From the NCBI GenBank assembly GCA_965205975.1, contig OZ242195.1, forward strand, positions 1,184,001 to 1,248,000: a stretch of 64,000 bases of DNA. Direction: 5' to 3'. Positions 1 to 8,833 of this stretch are shown one piece after another; the first letter of the stretch is position 1; every line of letters begins with the position of its first letter. The notes beneath the pieces are model-generated. The model worked only from the letters and a program-made list of their open reading frames with translations, was not told the DNA's origin and did no database searches. This stretch comes from Candidatus Latescibacterota bacterium. GTDB lineage: Bacteria > Latescibacterota > UBA2968. A program made the position numbers and the translations under genes.

Positions 1-1189
1 CACTCGCTATCTTGTGACCAGGCTCCAATGCCAATACCGCCTGATACTTCTCCCACGCGTTCGCACCAGCAGGACTCGTCAGACGATCTCGAGACATGTC
101 CTCAGTAGCAGCAGACAACAGATCGGATATCTTTTTTTCACGTTCCTGCGCGACCTCTGCCTTTGCTGCTTCCTGCGCTTGACGACGCTGAGTGGGGAGA
201 TACGCGTATTGATAATAAGACACGCCTCCGATCAACAAAGCCACTATGCAGAATATTGCTGCAAATAACTTGCCTCCGGACTTTTCTGATGATGGAGGTG
301 GTGGAGGTGGTTCTTCATCTTCCAGCATAACACGCCATTCAGCAATACTTTGGGGGCGATCCTCCTCGTTTACCTGTAACGCACTATCTATCGCAGATAA
401 AAATCCCGCACTCGCTTGACCCGCACAGCGCGCAGATACGGGAATCAAAGGATCATTTCGCATCCGATCTGTCGCATCATCTGGCACTTGACCAGTCAAT
501 GCCTGGTAGCACACAGCCCCCAATGCATAAATATCTGTCCAGGGTCCCTGATCATCTCGCGTTGAATACTGCTCTATTGGTGCGTATCCCGGCGTGATGA
601 TCGATGTAACCGAACGGCTCCTGGATCCTATTGCCTGACGTGCTGCACCAAAGTCCAGCAAGACGGGCGAATGGTCCTCGGCGCGGATGATGATATTGCC
701 AGGCTTGATGTCTCGATGCAAAAAATCTGCTCTATGCACGACTTCCAGACCATCCAAAATTGGATACACAATGTCTTCGAGTTCGGCTTCGCTCAGCGTC
801 CCTCTGCTTTGCAGAAATGATGATAAGGTCTCGCCCTCGGCGTATTCCATCACGATATACGCCGTGCCGTGTGCTTGGAAATAGCGATGTACTTTAATGA
901 TGTGCCGATGATCAAACCGGGCTAAGGTACGCGCTTCGTCTAAGAAACGATCCAGGCCCCACTCAAAATCATCTCGAAACTGGCTCGCTTGCGGAGCGAC
1001 GCTGTTATCGCCTGTGCGTGTGGCTATATCAGAGGGCAAGTATTCCTTAATGGCAACGGCTTTGTCCAGATTGTGGTCAAAGCCGAGATAGGTCATGCCG
1101 AAGCCGCCGAATCCGAGCACGCGCACGAGTTCGTATTCCTGAAGCCGATAGCCCTGGGGCAGGGCATTGAGGGGGTGTGGCGAAGAATC
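1..1189 (-). CDS. Membrane-anchored Hanks-type Ser/Thr protein kinase (kinase-Pro linker-TM-periplasmic domain); runs off the window edge, native start apparently lost
   Basis: Absent from the ORF track. Manual translation gives NALPQGYRLQEYELVRVLGFGGFGMTY, VAIKEYLP, HRDIKPGNII, LLDFGAAR, TPGYAPIEQY, WTDIYALG, then PPPPPPP, TM LFAAIFCIVALLIGGVSYY and LTSPAGANAWEKYQAVLALEP. The frame is open from 1201 to the edge, with no ATG before the Gly-rich loop. Confidence 0.93.
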
Positions 1190-1812
1190 GTATTGCCGAT
1201 GCTAATATGACTCAGCGCGGGGAGTTCAGCCGGAGTGAGTACGGGCTCGTCGTTGAGGTAGGTCAGGTTGGTACCGCCGCCATGCTGCACATAAAATTTC
1301 CTGCCGCGGGGATCGTAGGTGACAATCGCATGTCCGCCACGCGAGATTTGGTTATCGCCAAAATTGAGTTTTACACGGGCGGTTTCCCCGCGCCCAATGG
1401 GATTGGAACCATAGCCCAATTGCAGGGCACGTCCTTTGCCCGGTCCTTCGACAATGGCCAACCAGCCAACAACGGGGTCATCCATGCCATCGGTTTTTTC
1501 CTCGCGTTCTTCCGCAGATTGCGGGCGATTTGAGCTGGTACGACCACCTGTATTTAGACGCGTGCGTTCTTCTTCATAGGAACCTGAGGCTCGTCCAGCA
1601 CCTCCCGGTGCTTTAGGCTGTTGTTCTATTGGCTTTGTGGGTTCCTCTAAACGTCCCCCTCCTGAGCCTTGACCGCCGCCCGGTGGCACTGGCGGTCTGT
1701 TCGCACCATCGGGTTGTGGTAGGGTATTCTTATCACGCTTGACATTTGGTGATGGCGTCGGTTTGGTTTTTTCTTCTACGATATTGCCATCGGGATCGCG
1801 GTAAACTGGCAT
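1093..1812 (-). CDS. FHA-domain protein with disordered Pro/Gly-rich N-terminus; 3' end probably truncated and running out of frame into the kinase gene
   Basis: PVVGWLAIVEGPGKG...NPIGRG...DNQISRGGHA...GGTNLTYLN is an FHA pattern. After IGNTILR (1180) the sequence is kinase DNA read in another frame. Confidence 0.85.
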   Translation of the reverse strand: MPVYRDPDGNIVEEKTKPTPSPNVKRDKNTLPQPDGANRPPVPPGGGQGSGGGRLEEPTKPIEQQPKAPGGAGRASGSYEEERTRLNTGGRTSSNRPQSAEEREEKTDGMDDPVVGWLAIVEGPGKGRALQLGYGSNPIGRGETARVKLNFGDNQISRGGHAIVTYDPRGRKFYVQHGGGTNLTYLNDEPVLTPAELPALSHISIGNTILRHTPSMPCPRAIGFRNTNSCACSDSAASA

Positions 1813-1824
1813 AACACTATCCTC

Positions 1825-2610
1825 CTATTTTTCATAAAGACGGTTGATTAAATTATCCAAACAGTATTGCCCCGATTGGTTCAGGGCCATTTCCTCTTTT
1901 TGCTGCACGATATGCAGAGCAAAAACCAACAGTGCCGATTGGATCAGAGCGAGTAAGGTCGTGTAAAACGCAACGCCCAATTGTCCGGTGATTTCTGCCA
2001 GCAAATTCGGGTCCTGAGTACTTGCGCCTCCCGCATACTTCAAAGCCAAAGCGATTCCCACAACTGTGCCAATAAAGCCGAGTGTGGGTATCAACCATAC
2101 GAGATACCGCAGCATGGTGTATTTGAGTTCAAGTTCGTGCTGGAATAACTCCAGAGAAGAATTTAATAGGGAATTGGTCTGGCTGACCGATCTGCTGCCC
2201 TGAAATTGCAAAATGCAGCGCATGGTTAAGCGCTGTAAAAAGAATGTCCGTTCTCCATCCACCGGGCGCATTCTCTTATAGAGAAGACCCAGGTCTTGCG
2301 CCCGCAACATGGTCGTTTCGTCTTCTGGCAGGTATTGCTTTGATAGTTGTGCCACTTCCAGATTGGATTGATGAAATCGCCCCCACAACTCGCCACAGCC
2401 AATGAAAAACATAAGCCACATGATGTTCTGGATAGTAAACGGGTAAGGAAAACTTTTCGTGTGGCGGTCAAGCAAGAAATCACCCAATAGTGTTGAATCG
2501 GAGCTTGTAAAAGCAATAGTCATTAACGCAATAGCGATAACGCCGATAACAGTACTGACGCCAAATGCGATGAGGCGTTGATTTGTCTCTGTATTTTGTC
2601 CTTGTGTCAT
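1825..2610 (-). CDS. MotA/TolQ/ExbB proton-channel family protein
   Basis: LIPTLGFIGTVVGIALAL...LGVAFYTTLLALI signature plus additional N-terminal TMs. Start placed at ATG 2610, just after the upstream FHA gene's stop. Confidence 0.9.
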   Translation of the reverse strand: MTQGQNTETNQRLIAFGVSTVIGVIAIALMTIAFTSSDSTLLGDFLLDRHTKSFPYPFTIQNIMWLMFFIGCGELWGRFHQSNLEVAQLSKQYLPEDETTMLRAQDLGLLYKRMRPVDGERTFFLQRLTMRCILQFQGSRSVSQTNSLLNSSLELFQHELELKYTMLRYLVWLIPTLGFIGTVVGIALALKYAGGASTQDPNLLAEITGQLGVAFYTTLLALIQSALLVFALHIVQQKEEMALNQSGQYCLDNLINRLYEK

Positions 2611-2611
2611 A

Positions 2612-3010
2612 TTAGTCCTCGTTTTGAATGATTTCACCTGTTCCTTTTTTCCGACGCACCGGTCCTTCGGGTAAGTCGTCTTTTGGCAAAGGCGTTCTCT
2701 CTTCACCCGAATGGTCATCGCTTTTATTGTCATCATTTCCTCGAGCGACCATAGCGATGAGTTGGGGGGCTGTGGTCTGATAGCGACCGAGTAGAATCGC
2801 ATCCGTTGGGGCTATAAATTCCTGCCGGATGGGAATCCATTCGCCATTTCGCGCAACATAACTTCCGCCGCTGCTGTCGCTATCCGTCAGATAGTACTCT
2901 CCATTTGCAGTCACGACCAACTCGGCGTGGATGCGCGAGACTGTGGGATCGTCAAGGCGAATATCCATGTCCGAATTGCGACCGATTTTATACGTGGAAA
3001 AGTTAGACAT
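2612..3010 (-). CDS. Small FHA-domain protein
   Basis: KIGRNSDMDIRLDDPTVSRIHAEL...DSDSSGGSYV carries the FHA GR and SxxH motifs; acidic C-terminal tail. Confidence 0.88.
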   Translation of the reverse strand: MSNFSTYKIGRNSDMDIRLDDPTVSRIHAELVVTANGEYYLTDSDSSGGSYVARNGEWIPIRQEFIAPTDAILLGRYQTTAPQLIAMVARGNDDNKSDDHSGEERTPLPKDDLPEGPVRRKKGTGEIIQNED

Positions 3011-3021
3011 TTTGAAATCCT

Positions 3022-3813
3022 CTACGGGTGTGTGATACGCATATTACCTTCGGTATCCACATTGATTGTCGCTACCAACTTTTTCTCACCCTCTGTGCTA
3101 AGCCGCGTCTGCCGGAGGGAGGTTTGGCCTTCCGGGGTCAGCACACCTCCCCGAATATTCACACCGCGGTTGGTGTTACTCTTATTCTTATAGTATTTGT
3201 AATAGACTTTGTAGGTGCCAGCCTCAGCTATGGGGTGTAGCCATATTTCATTGCCTGGACCGCTGGTATTATCTTCTTCCAGCTTTGCCTGAGAACCGGA
3301 AAATGAGGGCTGTTGGTAATAGAATTCCCGGCCAGCGGGATCAACTACGTGTAGATCAATATCATCGCTTGTGCGCCAACTCATAATGATTAATAGAAAT
3401 TTCTTCTTCGCGCGCTCTTCGCACGACTCAATTTGTGCCTCGAGATCCTGGTTACGACTTTCGCACTCGCCCAGGGCATTTTGCGGTACAGATCTCCGCT
3501 GTTGATCTTCACACGACGCGAGTTGTGATTCGAGTTGCTGGTTACGGCTTTCGCACGCACCCAAAGCATCTCGCGATACGGACGCTCGTTGTTGATCTTC
3601 ACACGCGCTCAATTCTCCTCTTACGGCTTGTAATTCATTCTGGACTTGCTCGATCTGTGCCCTGACTTCTGCCACTCGCTCTGCTGAATCGCCGGTATTT
3701 GGAAAGTAAGGAAACAGGACAAAAGCAATCAATATGAACGCGCCCATTGCCGAGGCGAATAGATCGAGTGCAGACATGCTGAAGATGTTCAGTTCTCGGT
3801 TGCGGGATTTCAT
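3022..3813 (-). CDS. MotB/ExbD-like single-TM protein with Cys-containing coiled-coil repeats and a YfaP/DUF2135-like C-terminal domain
   Basis: N-terminus RNRELNIFSMSALDLFASAMGAFILI has an Asp at the TM start. C-terminus SWRTSDDIDLHVVDP...EDNTSGPGNEI. AGGAG lies 8 nt before ATG 3813. Confidence 0.75.
   Translation of the reverse strand: MKSRNRELNIFSMSALDLFASAMGAFILIAFVLFPYFPNTGDSAERVAEVRAQIEQVQNELQAVRGELSACEDQQRASVSRDALGACESRNQQLESQLASCEDQQRRSVPQNALGECESRNQDLEAQIESCEERAKKKFLLIIMSWRTSDDIDLHVVDPAGREFYYQQPSFSGSQAKLEEDNTSGPGNEIWLHPIAEAGTYKVYYKYYKNKSNTNRGVNIRGGVLTPEGQTSLRQTRLSTEGEKKLVATINVDTEGNMRITHP
3415..3610 (-). repeat. Two ~31-aa (~93-nt) coding repeats, CEDQQRxSVxxxALGxCESRNQxLExQ
   Basis: Visible in both the protein and the DNA; boundaries approximate. 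Confidence 0.75.
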
Positions 3814-3827
3814 TGTGGGCACTCCTG

Positions 3828-5183
3828 TTAAAATTTTGAGACCATGACCTCCAGACCACCCAGCGCAATGGTAGCACCATAGTCTAACGGTTCTGGGCGA
3901 AATGGAGATAAGCGATGGCGATTCAAAAACGTCCCATTGCTTGAATTCAGATCTTCGATATAAAATTGATCATCATGGACTGTGATTCTCAGATGTCGTC
4001 GGGATACCTGTTCATCTGGGATGACTTCATCTACCAGATCGGGATGCCTGCCCAGTGAAACTCCCGATCGTTGCCCTGCTAATTTTTCTGGCGATAGCAC
4101 GATGTGAACGCGATTGCCATTATCGTCAAACCCGGCCAGTACCAGGCCATGTGTTGGGCGTTGGTTTTCTGATGGTTGTCTTTTTAATGGTTGTTGAACT
4201 GCGCCATCGCGTTCTCGCCTTCTGATAGGTCGGCTCATCTGTTCTGCGACGCGGATGATCTGCTGCCGGGGTTTTCTTAAGCCGAGCAACAGGGCTGCCA
4301 ATGTCAAACTGCCCAATAATATGCCCCAGATAAGCAATTGCTGGCTCGCTTCTTCTGCACGGCGTTTGGCTTCTTCTGCCTGACGCTTCGCTTCTTCTGC
4401 CTCTTGAAGTGCCTCTTCCGTTTTCTCAGTATTAGCACCATCAGACGGTAAGCACGGATCTTTCTCTGGTGGTTGAAGAATATTGTGATTCGGAAAAAGC
4501 TTTACCAATTCCTCTATATGAGACGACCAGTAAATACCCGCTGCGTGAGGTACTCGCGTTACCCCATCGGATGGGCTGGTAATCACGACGAGGGACGCTT
4601 GCGTATTCACGCCAATCACCCTCCCACAGTCATCTACCAGAGGGCCACCGCTGTTACCCGGATTCGTAGGCGCATTGTGTTGAATAATCCTGAACATTTG
4701 TCTGTGCCACGCGCCTGAGAAAATTCTGCCAATAACACCATCCTGCACAGTTGGATTACGAGCGGGGCTGTCGTCTCTATCGGCCCCACCCGGATAACCG
4801 ATAGCCCAGACCTTCTGTCCTGCTTTCAATGGCGCAAGTGAAAGTCTGATCGGCGGAAGGTTGATGCTCGGTGCCTGTACGATTGCCAGGTCGAGCTCAT
4901 CTGATCGGGCAATCACGTTGACATCGTACGCGGTCTTGGAATTTGTCGGGATTGCTTTGATCTCGTTGCCACCAGCAATAACGTGTACGTTGGTGGCGAT
5001 ATAACCCTGATTGTTGATCACAAAGCCAGTACCCGTACCAACTCCTTGATTTGTCCGCGTTACAATACGCACAACACTCTTCTCAAGAGCATCAAAGTCT
5101 GGCGCAGCGACTGCATCATGCCCGTAAAACATAAATGCGAGAAAAAGACCGGCAAGACGCCAATATTTGCATACCAGTTGCAT
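3828..5183 (-). CDS. Signal peptide-trypsin-like (S1) serine protease-coiled coil-TM-FHA protein
   Basis: Catalytic triad motifs TNVHV, DLAIV and PGNSGGPL; TM LLIWGILLGSLTLAALLLGL; FHA SLGRH...VSRRH...DLNSSNGTFLN. Confidence 0.92.
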   Translation of the reverse strand: MQLVCKYWRLAGLFLAFMFYGHDAVAAPDFDALEKSVVRIVTRTNQGVGTGTGFVINNQGYIATNVHVIAGGNEIKAIPTNSKTAYDVNVIARSDELDLAIVQAPSINLPPIRLSLAPLKAGQKVWAIGYPGGADRDDSPARNPTVQDGVIGRIFSGAWHRQMFRIIQHNAPTNPGNSGGPLVDDCGRVIGVNTQASLVVITSPSDGVTRVPHAAGIYWSSHIEELVKLFPNHNILQPPEKDPCLPSDGANTEKTEEALQEAEEAKRQAEEAKRRAEEASQQLLIWGILLGSLTLAALLLGLRKPRQQIIRVAEQMSRPIRRRERDGAVQQPLKRQPSENQRPTHGLVLAGFDDNGNRVHIVLSPEKLAGQRSGVSLGRHPDLVDEVIPDEQVSRRHLRITVHDDQFYIEDLNSSNGTFLNRHRLSPFRPEPLDYGATIALGGLEVMVSKF

Positions 5184-5185
5184 TT

Positions 5186-6767
5186 TTACCCCGGAATCAG
5201 ACGCACTTGAAAGACAACAGGTCCCAATTCGAGTTGATCGTTGTTTTGCAACACCACCTGTTCGCGCGGGTTGAGTGGGGTTCCATTGATCCGGGTGCCA
5301 TTTGTGCTACCCAGATCCTCTGCACAGAGATTTCCGTCGGCATACAAAAGCCTGACGTGTTCACGGGATACGGATTCGTGGTCGATAATGAATTCCGAAT
5401 TGGCAGGGTTTCTTCCAAGTGTGGCACCAGAAGACAGGGCCAATGCCGGGATATTCAATACAAAGGGTTGGCCCGTGTTGTCTTGGCCTTCTAATAGACA
5501 TCGGAAAGGCGCGGGCTGCGGTGTCCGTGCTGCGGCTTGTCGCGCGGCTTCAGCTTCTTGTTCTACTTCACCTATTCGAGAGGATGCACCCTGCAATTGC
5601 GCCTTTTTGCTGCGTGCGAATACGAACCAGCCGAGGAGCAAAAGGATTATCAAGGACAGCCCCGGACAGGATTGCCCATTTCAAATGTTGCGATGTTTTT
5701 TCTTGCGCCTGTATGATACTATCCTGTATTGCCTTGCGTCTGGCGATACTATCCTCTATTGCTTTTTTAAGGGAATCCGTTTTTGCCTGTACCTGTCTTA
5801 AGCTATCTTCTCGTGCTTGTGATAAAGAATCTGTCTGTGCTTGTTGGGCTTTAAGTCGATCCTGTTCTGCTCTAAGACGGTTTTGTTCTGCTTTGAGACG
5901 GTCTTCTGTCTCCTGTGCTGCCTTTTTTATCGAATCTTCTCGTGCTTGTGTCAGGGAATCCGTTTTTGCCCGCGCCTGTCTTAAACTGTCTTCTCGTGCT
6001 CGTGTCAGGGAATCCGTTTTTGCCTGCGCCCGTCTTAAGCTGTCTTCCCGCGCTTGTGCGCGTTCAATCGCACTCAAGCAGGGTTGTTCTTCTACGGTAT
6101 GGGCAATTTCTCGATCTTTGAGCGCGGTGATGATATCGCCACTGCGCAAGGCAAAAACCGTTCCTCTGGGTTCCGGATTTCTCCGAAACGGCCAGCGAGT
6201 GCTTTCCGGGTTTGGGAGGTTGATGGCGATGACATCCCCACATTCATTGAACAGGGGCATACCGAATGCGTTGGATGTTACCAGGGCATTGTGTTGTAGC
6301 AGATGCACTACGAGATCGTCCGGGTTTTTGCCCGGTACGTCCTGGTATGCACCAATGGTGCCGCGGGCAATCTGGATACTATCCTGAGGTATCCATTTCA
6401 GAGTTTGCACGATCCGACCCACATCGGCCCCTTGTTCGGATAAGTTGAGGGGCGGTAGGCCCAGCCCCTGCGCTTGCAATAAGGCGAGGTTCATTTCCCG
6501 ACTGGCAAAGATCTGCTGTGCAGTTAGTTCGGCACCGGTCTTCAGGGCCAATACAGCAAATCTGTCTGCATCCGATAGAAGGTGCGCATTTGTCAACACA
6601 TATCCCTCTGCATTGACGACAAAGCCGCTCCCTTCGGCTATTATTTTGTTATTTTTGTACGCACGTACCCGCACAATACTTTCAGATACGACATCAATAT
6701 CTATTTCGGCAAATACAGGGCTGACGAATAAGAGTGATACGAAATACACAAGTATAGAAACGCGCAT
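5186..6767 (-). pseudogene. Paralogous trypsin-like (no catalytic Ser)-coiled-coil repeat-TM-FHA gene split by a +1 frameshift at ~5654
   Basis: ORF 5568..6773 reads ...WAILSGAV and ORF 5186..5653 continues LIILLLLGWFVF plus an FHA domain (LGRN..VSREH..DLGSTNGT). Removing one C at 5654/5655 joins them. TNAH is present but the GNSGGP position reads SNAFGMP. Confidence 0.82.
5740..6065 (-). repeat. Coding tandem repeats of ~18 aa (54 nt), AREDSLRQAxAKTDSLT
   Basis: GGGAATCCGTTTTTGCC and TCTTCTCGTGCT units recur in the DNA; boundaries approximate. Confidence 0.8.
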
Positions 6768-7027
6768 GATCATCTCCTCTACTATGGAGTTACCCGTTTT
6801 GTGGGAAAACGTGTGTGGCAGCCAATTGTATCCATGTTGAATTCAAAATATGCTCGCTTTAAAAAAAGGCCAAAAGGAATTTTATATGGCTACTTACTCG
6901 CCGTTTACCTTCTGTCGCATTATTTTGTTTTTTATGCTGTTGCGTATCTCAGGGTCTAACACTATCTTGTGGGGCGATTTGTTTGTCTCATTGAATTCTG
7001 CACGGAGTTCTGGTCGGAAGGGTTGCT

Positions 7028-8833
7028 ATGGATGTGTTGCTGGATGATGTCAAATTGCCGTCGCATTTAGATCGTCTGACAGATACGGCTCTGGATCTCA
7101 AGCGCGTTCAGGGTATGGTGCGCGTTGGTCCCGATGTGTTATTTGTGATATTGAGTGGCTCCTTGTTCAAGTTGACCGCAGAGAGGGCTGTGCTCGAACC
7201 CGTGTTTGATTCTGTGACGCGAATTTGGCCGGCTGATGATAATTGTGCGCTGGTCGAATCTGAAGGTGCGCTGTGGCGGGTTGATCTGGATGGTACAAAG
7301 GGGCGTTTGCTCACCATTCCCAAAGGGACGATTTCCTATGATGTCAAATGGGGCATACGGGGCCTGGTTGTAGGTGCGCTTGTGGATCGCCGCGCATCTG
7401 TGGATCCCAAAGCACCTTATTTTTATCCTGCGCCGAGAGAAAAGGTCACGCTGTGTCGATATGCTTCAATTGAAGGGTGGCACGATCTTGCCGATGTGCC
7501 AGAAGGATGTGGGAACCTGAGTATGTGTCGATATGGCCGTCGAATCGCGTGGCGGGAATCCCTCAATGTGATTCCCGAAGAAGCGCAGCGGGGAGAGTTT
7601 TACGGCTTTGATTTGAATACAAATGAGGTGCGAAAGTTGACCGAGGGCGCGGGCAAAGCCGGGCGCGCGGTGATGGCTTCGGATGGCTCTGCGCTGCTTT
7701 ACGAAGCCAATCACGAGGCGGTGTATCCCATTACAACGCATACGGATTTGTGGTGGTTGTCCTGGGATGGCAGCGAACGGGTGAATCTCACAGAGGGTGG
7801 GCGTTGTATTGCGCGCTTTGGCTGGGGACCCCGCGAAAAGACCGCCTGGGTATCGTTTGTAGAGGGTTTGGAAACGCAGACGGAAGTGCTGGCTCTGGAC
7901 GGGATACCAGAGGGGACATTTGGTGATCTGGATGCGGTATCAGATATTGTGTGGATGCCCGATGGCCTGGCTATTTTTGAAACCGAAGATGCAGAGCGAT
8001 TCCCCGCTATTTGGACAGGAACGCGCCGGGTGCCCTTGCCTCAGCCAGCGAATTACGAAGATTTGCGCGTTTTAGAAATGGAGTGGGAAGCTCCCGACGG
8101 CATGGAGATTGAGGGGGTACTCTACGAAGCAGATGGCCTCAGAGGCTCTGCCCCGTTGCTGGTTTCGGCACACGGGGGACCTGCCGCGCCGGTGGAGAAT
8201 GTGCGCAGTGAGGCGGTCCGATATCGCCACTTGTTGCGGGCGGGCTACCGGGTTTTTCGTCCGGCATTTCGGGGGTCTCTGGGTTTTGGAGATGATTTCG
8301 CGCGGAGCAATATCGGATGCCAGGGGCGGGCCGATCTCGAGGATATTATTTCGGGTGTTGATTTTTTGGTTGAAGAGGGTCTTGCAATAAAAAATCGGGT
8401 GGGTATTTTCGGGGCGTCTTACGGGGGATATATGACTTTGCGGGCACTATCTGTGACGGATCGATTTCAGGCGGGTGTCGCGCTTTTCGGTTTTATCGAC
8501 AACCGGCGGATGACCCTGGAGACGGGTGATTTTACCTATGAGACAGAGTATTTGGAACCGCTATCGTGGCCGATTACAGAGCGTACGCGCGGGGGCGATG
8601 TGTTTCCCAATTTGGGCGCAATTCGCACGCCGCTTCTGTTGTTGCACGGCGACCAGGATCCGATCTGTCCGCTGTCGGAGTCCAAAGTCACTTGTCGCGC
8701 ACTGGAAGCACTGGGGGTGCCGGTGGGCCTTGTGGTGTATCCGGGTGAGGGTCATGGGTTTCGGAAAGAGAAAAATCGCCGCGATAGTGCGAGGCGGACG
8801 TTGGCATGGTTTTTGAATTATTTGTCTCCGTGA
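7028..8833 (+). CDS. S9 family peptidase (acylaminoacyl/dipeptidyl aminopeptidase-like)
   Basis: HGGP, GASYGG nucleophile elbow, HGDQD, EGHGF; propeller-like N-terminal region. Confidence 0.9.
   Translation: MDVLLDDVKLPSHLDRLTDTALDLKRVQGMVRVGPDVLFVILSGSLFKLTAERAVLEPVFDSVTRIWPADDNCALVESEGALWRVDLDGTKGRLLTIPKGTISYDVKWGIRGLVVGALVDRRASVDPKAPYFYPAPREKVTLCRYASIEGWHDLADVPEGCGNLSMCRYGRRIAWRESLNVIPEEAQRGEFYGFDLNTNEVRKLTEGAGKAGRAVMASDGSALLYEANHEAVYPITTHTDLWWLSWDGSERVNLTEGGRCIARFGWGPREKTAWVSFVEGLETQTEVLALDGIPEGTFGDLDAVSDIVWMPDGLAIFETEDAERFPAIWTGTRRVPLPQPANYEDLRVLEMEWEAPDGMEIEGVLYEADGLRGSAPLLVSAHGGPAAPVENVRSEAVRYRHLLRAGYRVFRPAFRGSLGFGDDFARSNIGCQGRADLEDIISGVDFLVEEGLAIKNRVGIFGASYGGYMTLRALSVTDRFQAGVALFGFIDNRRMTLETGDFTYETEYLEPLSWPITERTRGGDVFPNLGAIRTPLLLLHGDQDPICPLSESKVTCRALEALGVPVGLVVYPGEGHGFRKEKNRRDSARRTLAWFLNYLSP

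Follow-up and report, generated by a model that had tools for sequence, protein, structure and literature searches.

The window analysed here, a stretch of 64,000 nucleotides from a Candidatus Latescibacterota bacterium (contig OZ242195.1), carries at its left end a seven-gene cluster built around a MotA/TolQ/ExbB-like channel subunit and a partner protein with an Asp-bearing transmembrane (TM) helix. The window corresponds to G000:C1:1,184,001-1,248,000, where G000 is its own genome, one contig and 98% complete. Coordinates below are window positions unless marked as genome positions, and G-, L- and X-labels are our names for relative genomes, loci and public sequencing runs, respectively. 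The nearest relatives were titled Candidatus Latescibacterota. The seven genes were tightly packed on the minus strand, and Pfam assigned Trypsin_2 with FHA to two of them, FHA alone to two, and MotA_ExbB and Pkinase to one each. An earlier note on this DNA had described seven co-oriented genes in this order, with a dead trypsin first and an active one second; the gene calls, the Pfam matches and the triads (H/N/F versus H/D/S) bore this out.

In order of transcription, gene 1 (5186..6773) encodes a pseudo-trypsin followed by a coiled coil, a TM segment and a cytoplasmic FHA domain, as judged from Trypsin_2 and FHA matches on two pieces, the triad and the alignment of relatives; its N-terminus has a signal-like hydrophobic segment. 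The next gene (3828..5183) encodes an active trypsin-like protease of the same layout, with its TM segment at residues 283-301 (Trypsin_2 E 4.8e-30, FHA E 1.1e-18, triad, hydropathy). The partner (3022..3813) consists of a basic N-terminus, a TM transpore helix (TPH) with Asp17, a coiled-coil stalk and a TerD-like or DUF2135-like beta-sandwich head, assigned from conservation, a model and Foldseek. It is followed by FHA1 (2612..3010), a small FHA protein whose C-terminal tail has a conserved motif (FHA E 9e-14, gene order), and by the channel subunit of 261 residues (1825..2610), which is without a ZorA-type tail and was assigned from PF01618 (E 3.7e-11), invariant residues, a model and Foldseek. 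FHA2 (1180..1812) has a disordered N-terminal tail, in which acidic-x-Thr-basic-hydrophobic motifs recur, and an FHA domain at the C-terminus, assigned from Pfam and a motif count. The last gene (1..1177, on to genome position 1,182,797) encodes a Hanks kinase with a TM segment, a helical region and, outside the window, a C-terminal FGE-sulfatase domain of the C-type lectin (CLec) fold (E 4.7e-58). The Pkinase domain scored E 6e-38 in the window part and 5.7e-37 in the full gene scan. The earlier note had a kinase-TM-periplasmic domain protein here; the kinase motifs were indeed intact, but the gene extends 1.2 kb past the left window edge and ends in the CLec/FGE domain.

The neighbourhood search from both seeds, which the earlier note had proposed, found the genes together in other genomes. 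The partner-seeded scan confirmed 286 stretches, and 79 loci were kept, some of which overlap or hit contig ends. Their hosts were Latescibacterota, Binatota, alpha- and gamma-Proteobacteria, Acidobacteriota and Campylobacterota, with one Phycisphaerales contig. MotA and stand-alone FHA genes were each present in 61 of the 79 loci, kinase in 59, PP2C in 54 and trypsin-TM-FHA in 51; all five were present in 34, and in 50 loci MotA, kinase and stand-alone FHA lay within 10 kb. For the MotA-seeded control, 36 of 80 metagenome loci were used (at least 9 kb) and 44 short ones were dropped. Among the 36, the partner was found in 34, FHA in 35, kinase in 26, trypsin-FHA in 23 and PP2C in 16. This co-occurrence is far beyond chance, and the genes are a real cluster conserved across several bacterial phyla. 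The order was reshuffled between lineages while the membership was kept, with split and inverted layouts in L074, L075 and L084; MotA lay directly before the partner gene in 14 of 79 loci, and FHA1 directly before MotA in most. Eight of the 79 loci had no companion gene. In L051, L053, L054, L055, L059, L068, L093 and L106, a TerD-headed partner stood without companions in the fetched flank, and the rest may sit elsewhere in the genome.

Furthermore, a MotA search gave 148 clusters at 50% identity with E values up to 1e-30. MotA matches occurred in 15 of 61 related genomes (own included, two weak) and in 10 of 20 within the genus. Three of 72,556 plasmids had a MotA match, and a search of viral contigs gave no relative of MotA. 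Since the carriers include cultured organisms (Nitrincola alkalisediminis JCM 19317, Alteromonas lipotrueae MD_652, Roseovarius sp. MMSF_3281 and Rhizobium leguminosarum BT01), the system is directly testable. The Rhizobium locus (L199, plasmid pRlBT01d, 5669-23468) was an apparently intact variant with a TerD-like head, two PP2C genes and two PDZ kinases, one of which also has PAN. It also encoded proteins of 180 and 1610 residues without Pfam match and no trypsin; similar large proteins were present in L086 and L090.

The evidence for a motor lies in the channel subunit and its partner. PF01618 scored 43.3 bits against a cut-off of 22.9, and the model of the subunit had a pLDDT of 92. The top Foldseek rows were TolQ/ExbB (E 7e-3 to 2e-2, probability 1.0, TMq up to 0.54), with MotA, PomA and ZorA lower and none at E 0.001. 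A profile search against the PDB returned TolQ, MotA or PomA in eight of eight rows, all weak (E 0.18-0.48). P175, G178, G181, T182 and T218 were invariant in 58 of 58 MotA-like sequences, and P175, T182 and T218 line up with TolQ motifs, namely a Pro and lumen Thr residues conserved across the final two TM helices. In the partner, Asp17 of the single TM helix was invariant (69/69). The earlier note's claim of a MotA/ExbB-like channel plus an Asp-bearing TM partner thus holds. With the N-terminal profile of the partner, the solved chains matched were all unrelated, at E 0.5 or worse, and no ExbD/TolR family member was found among the scanned neighbours. On the strength of established motor biology and the prediction in PMC12204202, the two proteins very likely form a 5:2 ion channel by analogy, in which the partner would dock inside the pentamer and which is probably proton-driven. 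A complex prediction with four MotA-like chains (residues 50-261) and two partner chains (1-55) scored 0.19 (mark 0.32); these were fragments at 4:2 and uninformative for 5:2.

The head of the partner was modelled as a beta-sandwich, whose best matches were TerD (Foldseek E 4e-4 and 1e-3). Compared with 48,161 chains, the best two were again TerD, with Z 9.7 (rmsd 3.4, 122 aligned) and Z 8.4 at 10-11% identity, and the acidic motifs of the TerD-like head were conserved. The earlier note had called the partner YfaP-like with a TM Asp. The Asp stands, and the YfaP likeness comes down to a weak DUF2135 score in Pfam (E 0.03-0.06 for the window partner; 7 of 34 heads). In an Atlas search with the head, all leads were below 0.9, and two of three were DUF2135 clusters. 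Among the MotA-seeded partners, the same N-terminal helix carried a vWA head in 26 of 34 and a TerD-like head in 8 of 34, and the vWA partners were often paired. In a quick MotA tree of 66 rows, which excluded nine duplicates among the loci and MotA pieces shorter than 190 residues and took head labels from profile plus motif, the labels needed five changes, and well-supported branches forced at least three for vWA. The nearest row to the window, G006, was 90% identical and had a vWA head, which was broken. Because of these repeated changes and the vWA-headed nearest relative, the head is read from the sequences as an exchangeable module that swaps between TerD-like and vWA in close relatives. 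The window thus contributes a variant with a TerD-like head, along with evidence that heads have been swapped repeatedly.

Motors of this core type have been predicted before. PMC12204202 (2025) predicts motors made of a TolQ-like pentamer and vWA partners whose transpore helix bears an Asp, and it proposes force transduction. Our pair resembles them in a TolQ-like gene without tolR/exbD, a TolR/ExbD-like partner helix with a proton-binding Asp, a Thr ring, and a vWA head in most MotA-seeded relatives. It differs in the TerD-like head and the single partner gene, versus vWA and a mostly heterologous gene pair there. In the main text of that paper, the words 'kinase', 'trypsin', 'protease' and 'TerD' do not occur; its figures or data may show the same family. 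The wiring with kinase, FHA, PP2C and protease genes, the TerD-like head and the link to a diversity-generating retroelement (DGR) were not found in the literature searched, where subscription papers were thinly covered. The earlier note's word 'undescribed' can therefore be kept for the phospho-wiring and should be dropped for the motor core.

The phosphorylation genes appeared competent in sequence. The catalytic motifs of the kinase were intact. The FHA Arg and SxxH motifs were kept in 33 of 33 FHA1 proteins (GR and SxxH), in 49 and 43 of 50 FHA2 proteins, and in 79 and 74 of 79 trypsin-FHA proteins; the usual FHA Asn was mostly absent from FHA1 (kept in 3 of 33). With these phospho-threonine-binding motifs and the kinase motifs in place, the earlier note's four canonical FHA domains and Ser/Thr kinase in one operon are confirmed. 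In the FHA2 tails, the acidic-x-Thr-basic-hydrophobic motif gave 25 matches in 24 of 50 proteins, against a shuffle mean of 2.7 and a maximum of 9; the motif was picked after inspection and the sequences are related. The tail is a candidate kinase substrate. This enrichment parallels the protein EsrG1, in which, according to passages of PMC13622651, a Thr in a disordered region beside FHA is phosphorylated during epibiont sensing. We consider it somewhat more likely than not that phosphorylation controls the motor. In addition, the C-terminal tail of FHA1 (2612-2670) and the N-terminus of FHA2 (1770-1812) had similar short motifs (Arg, turn, Gly, two Ile) in most homologues, possibly a shared docking hairpin.

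The two trypsin-TM-FHA genes kept a fixed arrangement, with the dead copy first and the H/D/S copy second in 28 of 28 two-trypsin loci (one a duplicate). Two Cys were conserved in 110 and 95 of 112 trypsin domains. Among single-trypsin loci of the partner-seeded set, 19 of 24 were active. In other loci the same ectodomain-TM-FHA slot was occupied by vWA or peptidoglycan (PG)-binding domains. From these sequences, what stays constant is a putative binding domain in the periplasm, tied to an FHA domain in the cytoplasm, with catalysis optional.

Some loci had a single kinase and others a tandem array, and the kinase ectodomains were FGE/CLec, Sel1, ankyrin, PEGA, PG-binding, Lcl_C, SH3, PDZ and PAN. 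Judged from these domains, the periplasmic ends are interchangeable binding modules. The cluster also contained accessory proteins in which FGE or T2SSG/PEGA is fused to a TonB_C domain at the end (L052:14706-16487 and L058:16092-17810). A DGR scan covered 118 loci and gave a reverse transcriptase (RT) at five distinct places. Five places (L033, L026/L034, L041, L047 and L022/L035) had pairs of template and variable repeats that differed specifically at adenines. Avd, RT and template repeat occurred together in the first four, and L022/L035 had a template without RT. In L033 (G017), seven variable repeats each had 17-20 mismatches, at most one of them outside A. Most variable repeats were the C-terminal tips of kinase-CLec genes. 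As far as sequence can tell, the tip of the window kinase looks like a DGR variable region: it was identical to the L033 template repeat at 85 of 118 positions, and 17 of the 33 mismatches fell on A (p 0.007, with selection as a confounder). DGR-varied Ser/Thr kinase-CLec proteins are known from PMC7517822 and PMC11661182, and passages of PMC10907252 propose DGR-varied CLec proteins as antigen sensors. The proteins of these three papers resemble ours in a kinase joined to a C-terminal CLec/FGE domain, whose tips vary specifically at adenines, and in trypsin and vWA neighbours, there in conflict systems. They differ from the present genes, which are membrane-receptor kinases beside an ion motor, with no recurring MoxR or STAND NTPase and, in G000, without a DGR; the passages compared in the three papers gave no link to an ion motor. 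The earlier note had suggested a sensor. A sensing role would be better assigned to the variable kinase ectodomains, which are DGR-diversified in relatives, and the motor as a Zorya-like sensor fits less well.

The copy in this assembly was damaged. One additional base near 5648-5652 splits gene 1 within the TM segment, as seen in the alignment with relatives. At 1179..1180 lies the junction of a deletion of about 0.11 kb, recognised by alignment with G006, G010 and G012 and by a blastn gap against G006. Because it takes the end of FHA2 (its final 20 or so codons), the intergenic stretch and the kinase start, FHA2 and the kinase run together out of frame. Four of seven public sequencing runs were compared at the damage sites. 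The contigs of X1, X2 and X3 each had one base fewer at 5648-5652, so that the gene-1 frame was kept. Those of X1 and X3 had 96 further letters past 1180, and one loose end in X3 matched the kinase start of relatives. Since these three runs come from one study, the source sample may be among them and rare variants are lost in contigs, both lesions are read as assembly errors or one-strain features; that decay of this strain explains them is doubtful. At the same chromosomal site, G006 had a locus with PP2C, a second kinase and DGR remnants.

From these results, the TolQ-like subunit and Asp-helix partner are co-inherited with FHA adaptors, ectodomain-TM-FHA proteins, usually PP2C, and one to several receptor kinases. 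We read the cluster as a phosphorylation-switched envelope-surveillance machine, in which receptor kinase, Thr phosphorylation and FHA assembly on a proton-driven 5:2 motor would lead to periplasmic action as a threat response. We hold this interpretation tentatively, at a little short of an even chance, and the same applies to the threat-response role taken by itself. A periplasmic ligand, probably foreign or damage-derived, would bind the kinase ectodomain, and the kinase would phosphorylate the Thr motifs of the FHA2 tail and perhaps itself too. The four FHA domains would then bring the protease/pseudoprotease pair and FHA1 to the cytoplasmic face of the motor. Protons passing Asp17 and the Thr ring would turn the coiled-coil stalk, the TerD-like or vWA head would grip or pull a periplasmic target, and the tethered trypsin would hold or cut it. 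PP2C would reset the switch. A bolder form is unlikely in our judgement: a new class of diderm envelope immunity, in which kinase arrays with swappable, locally DGR-hypermutated tips would feed an FHA code into a proton-driven rotary motor whose head delivers the target (a phage tail, an epibiont or a rival's effector) to the protease/pseudoprotease pair.

Ion motors of the 5:2 type (Ton, Tol, stators, Zorya, gliding) are switched by partner binding or mechanics. To our knowledge, none is controlled by its own set of Hanks kinase, PP2C and FHA proteins. The cluster would offer such phospho-wiring, and it adds a modular head, for which two unrelated folds alternate behind one transpore helix, together with receptor kinases diversified by DGR in some relatives. 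The predicted TPH motors would be given a regulatory setting and a role that can be tested, and the DGR-varied kinases would have a candidate output.

Several results weigh against the surveillance interpretation. The Foldseek and profile matches of the channel subunit to solved motors are individually weak, and the local copy of the cluster is damaged. No PP2C was found anywhere in G000 (present in 54 of 79 related loci), nor were an RT, Avd or template repeat. No RT occurred in the 80 metagenome loci, many of them short, and DGRs were a minority. L067 and L131 had the motor pair without kinase or FHA genes nearby. In L033, the partner was not found and MotA was a fragment, yet the DGR-kinase array was expanded, so the motor and kinase halves can separate. 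No toxin, nuclease or other lethal effector recurred among the neighbourhood genes. L088, L094 and L199 had no trypsin gene, and of the 28 MotA-seeded loci with a single trypsin, 20 had the dead copy only, by an alignment count to which one clade contributed many. The earlier note had named regulated proteolysis as a possible output. The protease is live here, but such dead-only single trypsins and the non-protease domains in the same slot weaken the emphasis on proteolysis, which is not universal.

The relation of motor and kinase could also be reversed. In ZorAB, an anchored head senses envelope distortion, and by the same logic the motor here would be the input, its turning activating the kinases or FHA assembly, with targets encoded elsewhere. 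The absence of a clear recurring effector gene, the position of FHA1 directly before MotA and a head of a binding fold on a long stalk all suit this arrangement, which we consider quite unlikely nonetheless, as the kinases already bear their own variable, sometimes DGR-rewritten receptor domains and the 261-residue subunit is without a ZorA-like cytoplasmic tail. That the cluster is a housekeeping machine of the envelope, of adhesion or of contact and not a defence, an Agl-Glt-like regulated force generator that would serve attachment, movement on surfaces or quality control in the periplasm, appears decidedly improbable: patchy presence (10 of 20 same-genus genomes), frequent decay, head swapping and DGR-varied receptors fit conflict better, GltG was matched through FHA alone and no outer-membrane partner recurs. 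Such a machine would account for the vWA heads of the MotA-seeded partners and for PG-binding, TonB_C and PEGA domains among the accessory genes, and PMC12204202, in the parts compared, proposes force transduction for the core type.

A looser association, with a receptor-kinase/FHA/PP2C cassette and an independent small motor co-travelling on islands, would explain the motor-only loci, the kinase arrays beside a decayed motor in L033 and the eight partner genes without nearby companions. It is very unlikely, given that in at least five phyla the genes have remained together despite interleaving and reshuffling, with split or inverted loci among the cases. The domain set of kinase, PP2C, FHA and FGE is also that of a type VI secretion system (T6SS) accessory sensing module of the PpkA/PppA/Fha1/TagR kind, with kinase and FGE fused. 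The module did stand beside VgrG in Hansschlegelia and Methylobacterium, and TssK or TssM homologues were present in L109 and L096. Such a role is highly improbable overall and is refuted for the 98%-complete G000, in which TssC/VipB was not found; TssC occurred in 8 of 50 host genomes chosen from the 79 loci (genome completeness not given), and T6SS genes flanked 3 of 201 loci. As these three were all Hyphomicrobiales, the link looks like co-option in one alphaproteobacterial clade. In L109, L111 and L096, the FHA1-MotA-partner module lay inside T6SS clusters, adjoining DUF4399 and a lysozyme-like gene.

The cluster was further compared with known systems. ZorA has a long cytoplasmic tail and ZorB a peptidoglycan-binding domain. 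The Zorya pair is alike in a MotA-like subunit with an Asp-helix partner and in a possible defence role. The Zorya likeness drawn by the earlier note did not survive the PADLOC run it had proposed: ZorA scored E 2e-5 versus 4e-107 for the true ZorA of the genome, the subunit is of 261 residues with no tail, no ZorB model matched the partner, and a scan of 10 proteins from the operon and downstream of it gave no ZorC, ZorD or ZorE, which were missing from the recurring neighbours as well. The other PADLOC matches of operon proteins were generic (kinase, trypsin or coiled coil), and the NCBIfam scan gave no name for the channel subunit or the partner. A complete type II Zorya lies elsewhere in the genome (L201, G000:C1:4,387,123-4,390,031), with ZorA, ZorB and ZorE at PADLOC E 4e-107, 4e-99 and 3e-83.

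TolQ-TolR, ExbB-ExbD and MotA-MotB share the fold of the pentamer subunit, the Pro/Gly/Thr signature and the partner-helix Asp with our pair, but here there is no TolR/ExbD or OmpA-like periplasmic domain and no recurring TolA, TonB, TolB or Pal neighbour, and the pair is set in phospho-signalling genes. A flagellar stator was rejected, because Flagellin_N was not found in the genome (the control search was positive in 4 of 14) and the head is TerD-like, not MotB-type. In the T6SS, the threonine-phosphorylation pathway is PpkA/PppA/Fha1/TagR. This pathway and the actinobacterial Esr pathway, described in passages of PMC13622651 as kinase/PP2C/FHA/vWA threat sensing, are alike in a membrane kinase, PP2C, an FHA protein with a disordered Thr-bearing region and envelope threat sensing. 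Their output is a secretion system or transcription; here it would be a motor with tethered proteases, with no linked T6SS or Esx. A Deinococcus operon with vWA, kinase, FHA and PP2C genes has also been reported. The TagH model gave 45-49 bits versus a cut-off of 120, and VgrG, TssK and TssM were not found in G000 by tblastn. The earlier note's statement that T6SS and flagellar genes are absent thus extends, for TssC/VipB and Flagellin_N, to the whole genome. The Myxococcus Agl-Glt system combines a TolQ/TolR-like motor with a vWA adhesin and a TM partner that bears FHA. It was rejected as a match, since the GltG model reached 18-31 bits (FHA only) versus 650 and no other Agl/Glt model matched. 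Two other candidates were set aside: in the passages of PMC11341870 on KKP, 'MotA' is the T4 protein, and those compared on the ternary systems of PMC7159879 contain no occurrence of MotA or ExbB.

The sequence left of the window was inspected, as the earlier note had proposed, and the cluster does not run into T6SS genes; past the kinase, no T6SS, flagellar or Tol genes were found there. On the 3' side of the kinase (L001, window -8234 to -1241) lie an unknown protein of 380 residues, a secreted FGE protein, an AbiEii-like AAA_21 protein with a DUF3226-like partner, and an AAA-ATPase-PD-(D/E)XK protein. No promoter or terminator consensus was found at 6700-7100, and an Rfam scan left of the window gave one tRNA and nothing else. 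The GC content of the operon equals that of the genome (0.508). The L001 segment had a GC content of 0.47 versus 0.51 and stands where G006 has a PP2C/DGR segment. Two further non-canonical MotA/ExbB-like loci with a short ExbD-like partner were noticed in the genome, at G000:C1:1,321,981-1,328,287, with neighbours apparently TPR- and PEGA-like by eye, and at G000:C1:482,573-485,123, near FGE genes. Moreover, a distant MotA-like gene (28% identity) lies after a type III-B CRISPR-Cmr operon, near a viperin gene, on Anabaena cylindrica plasmid pANACY.03 (L200, 963-16867).

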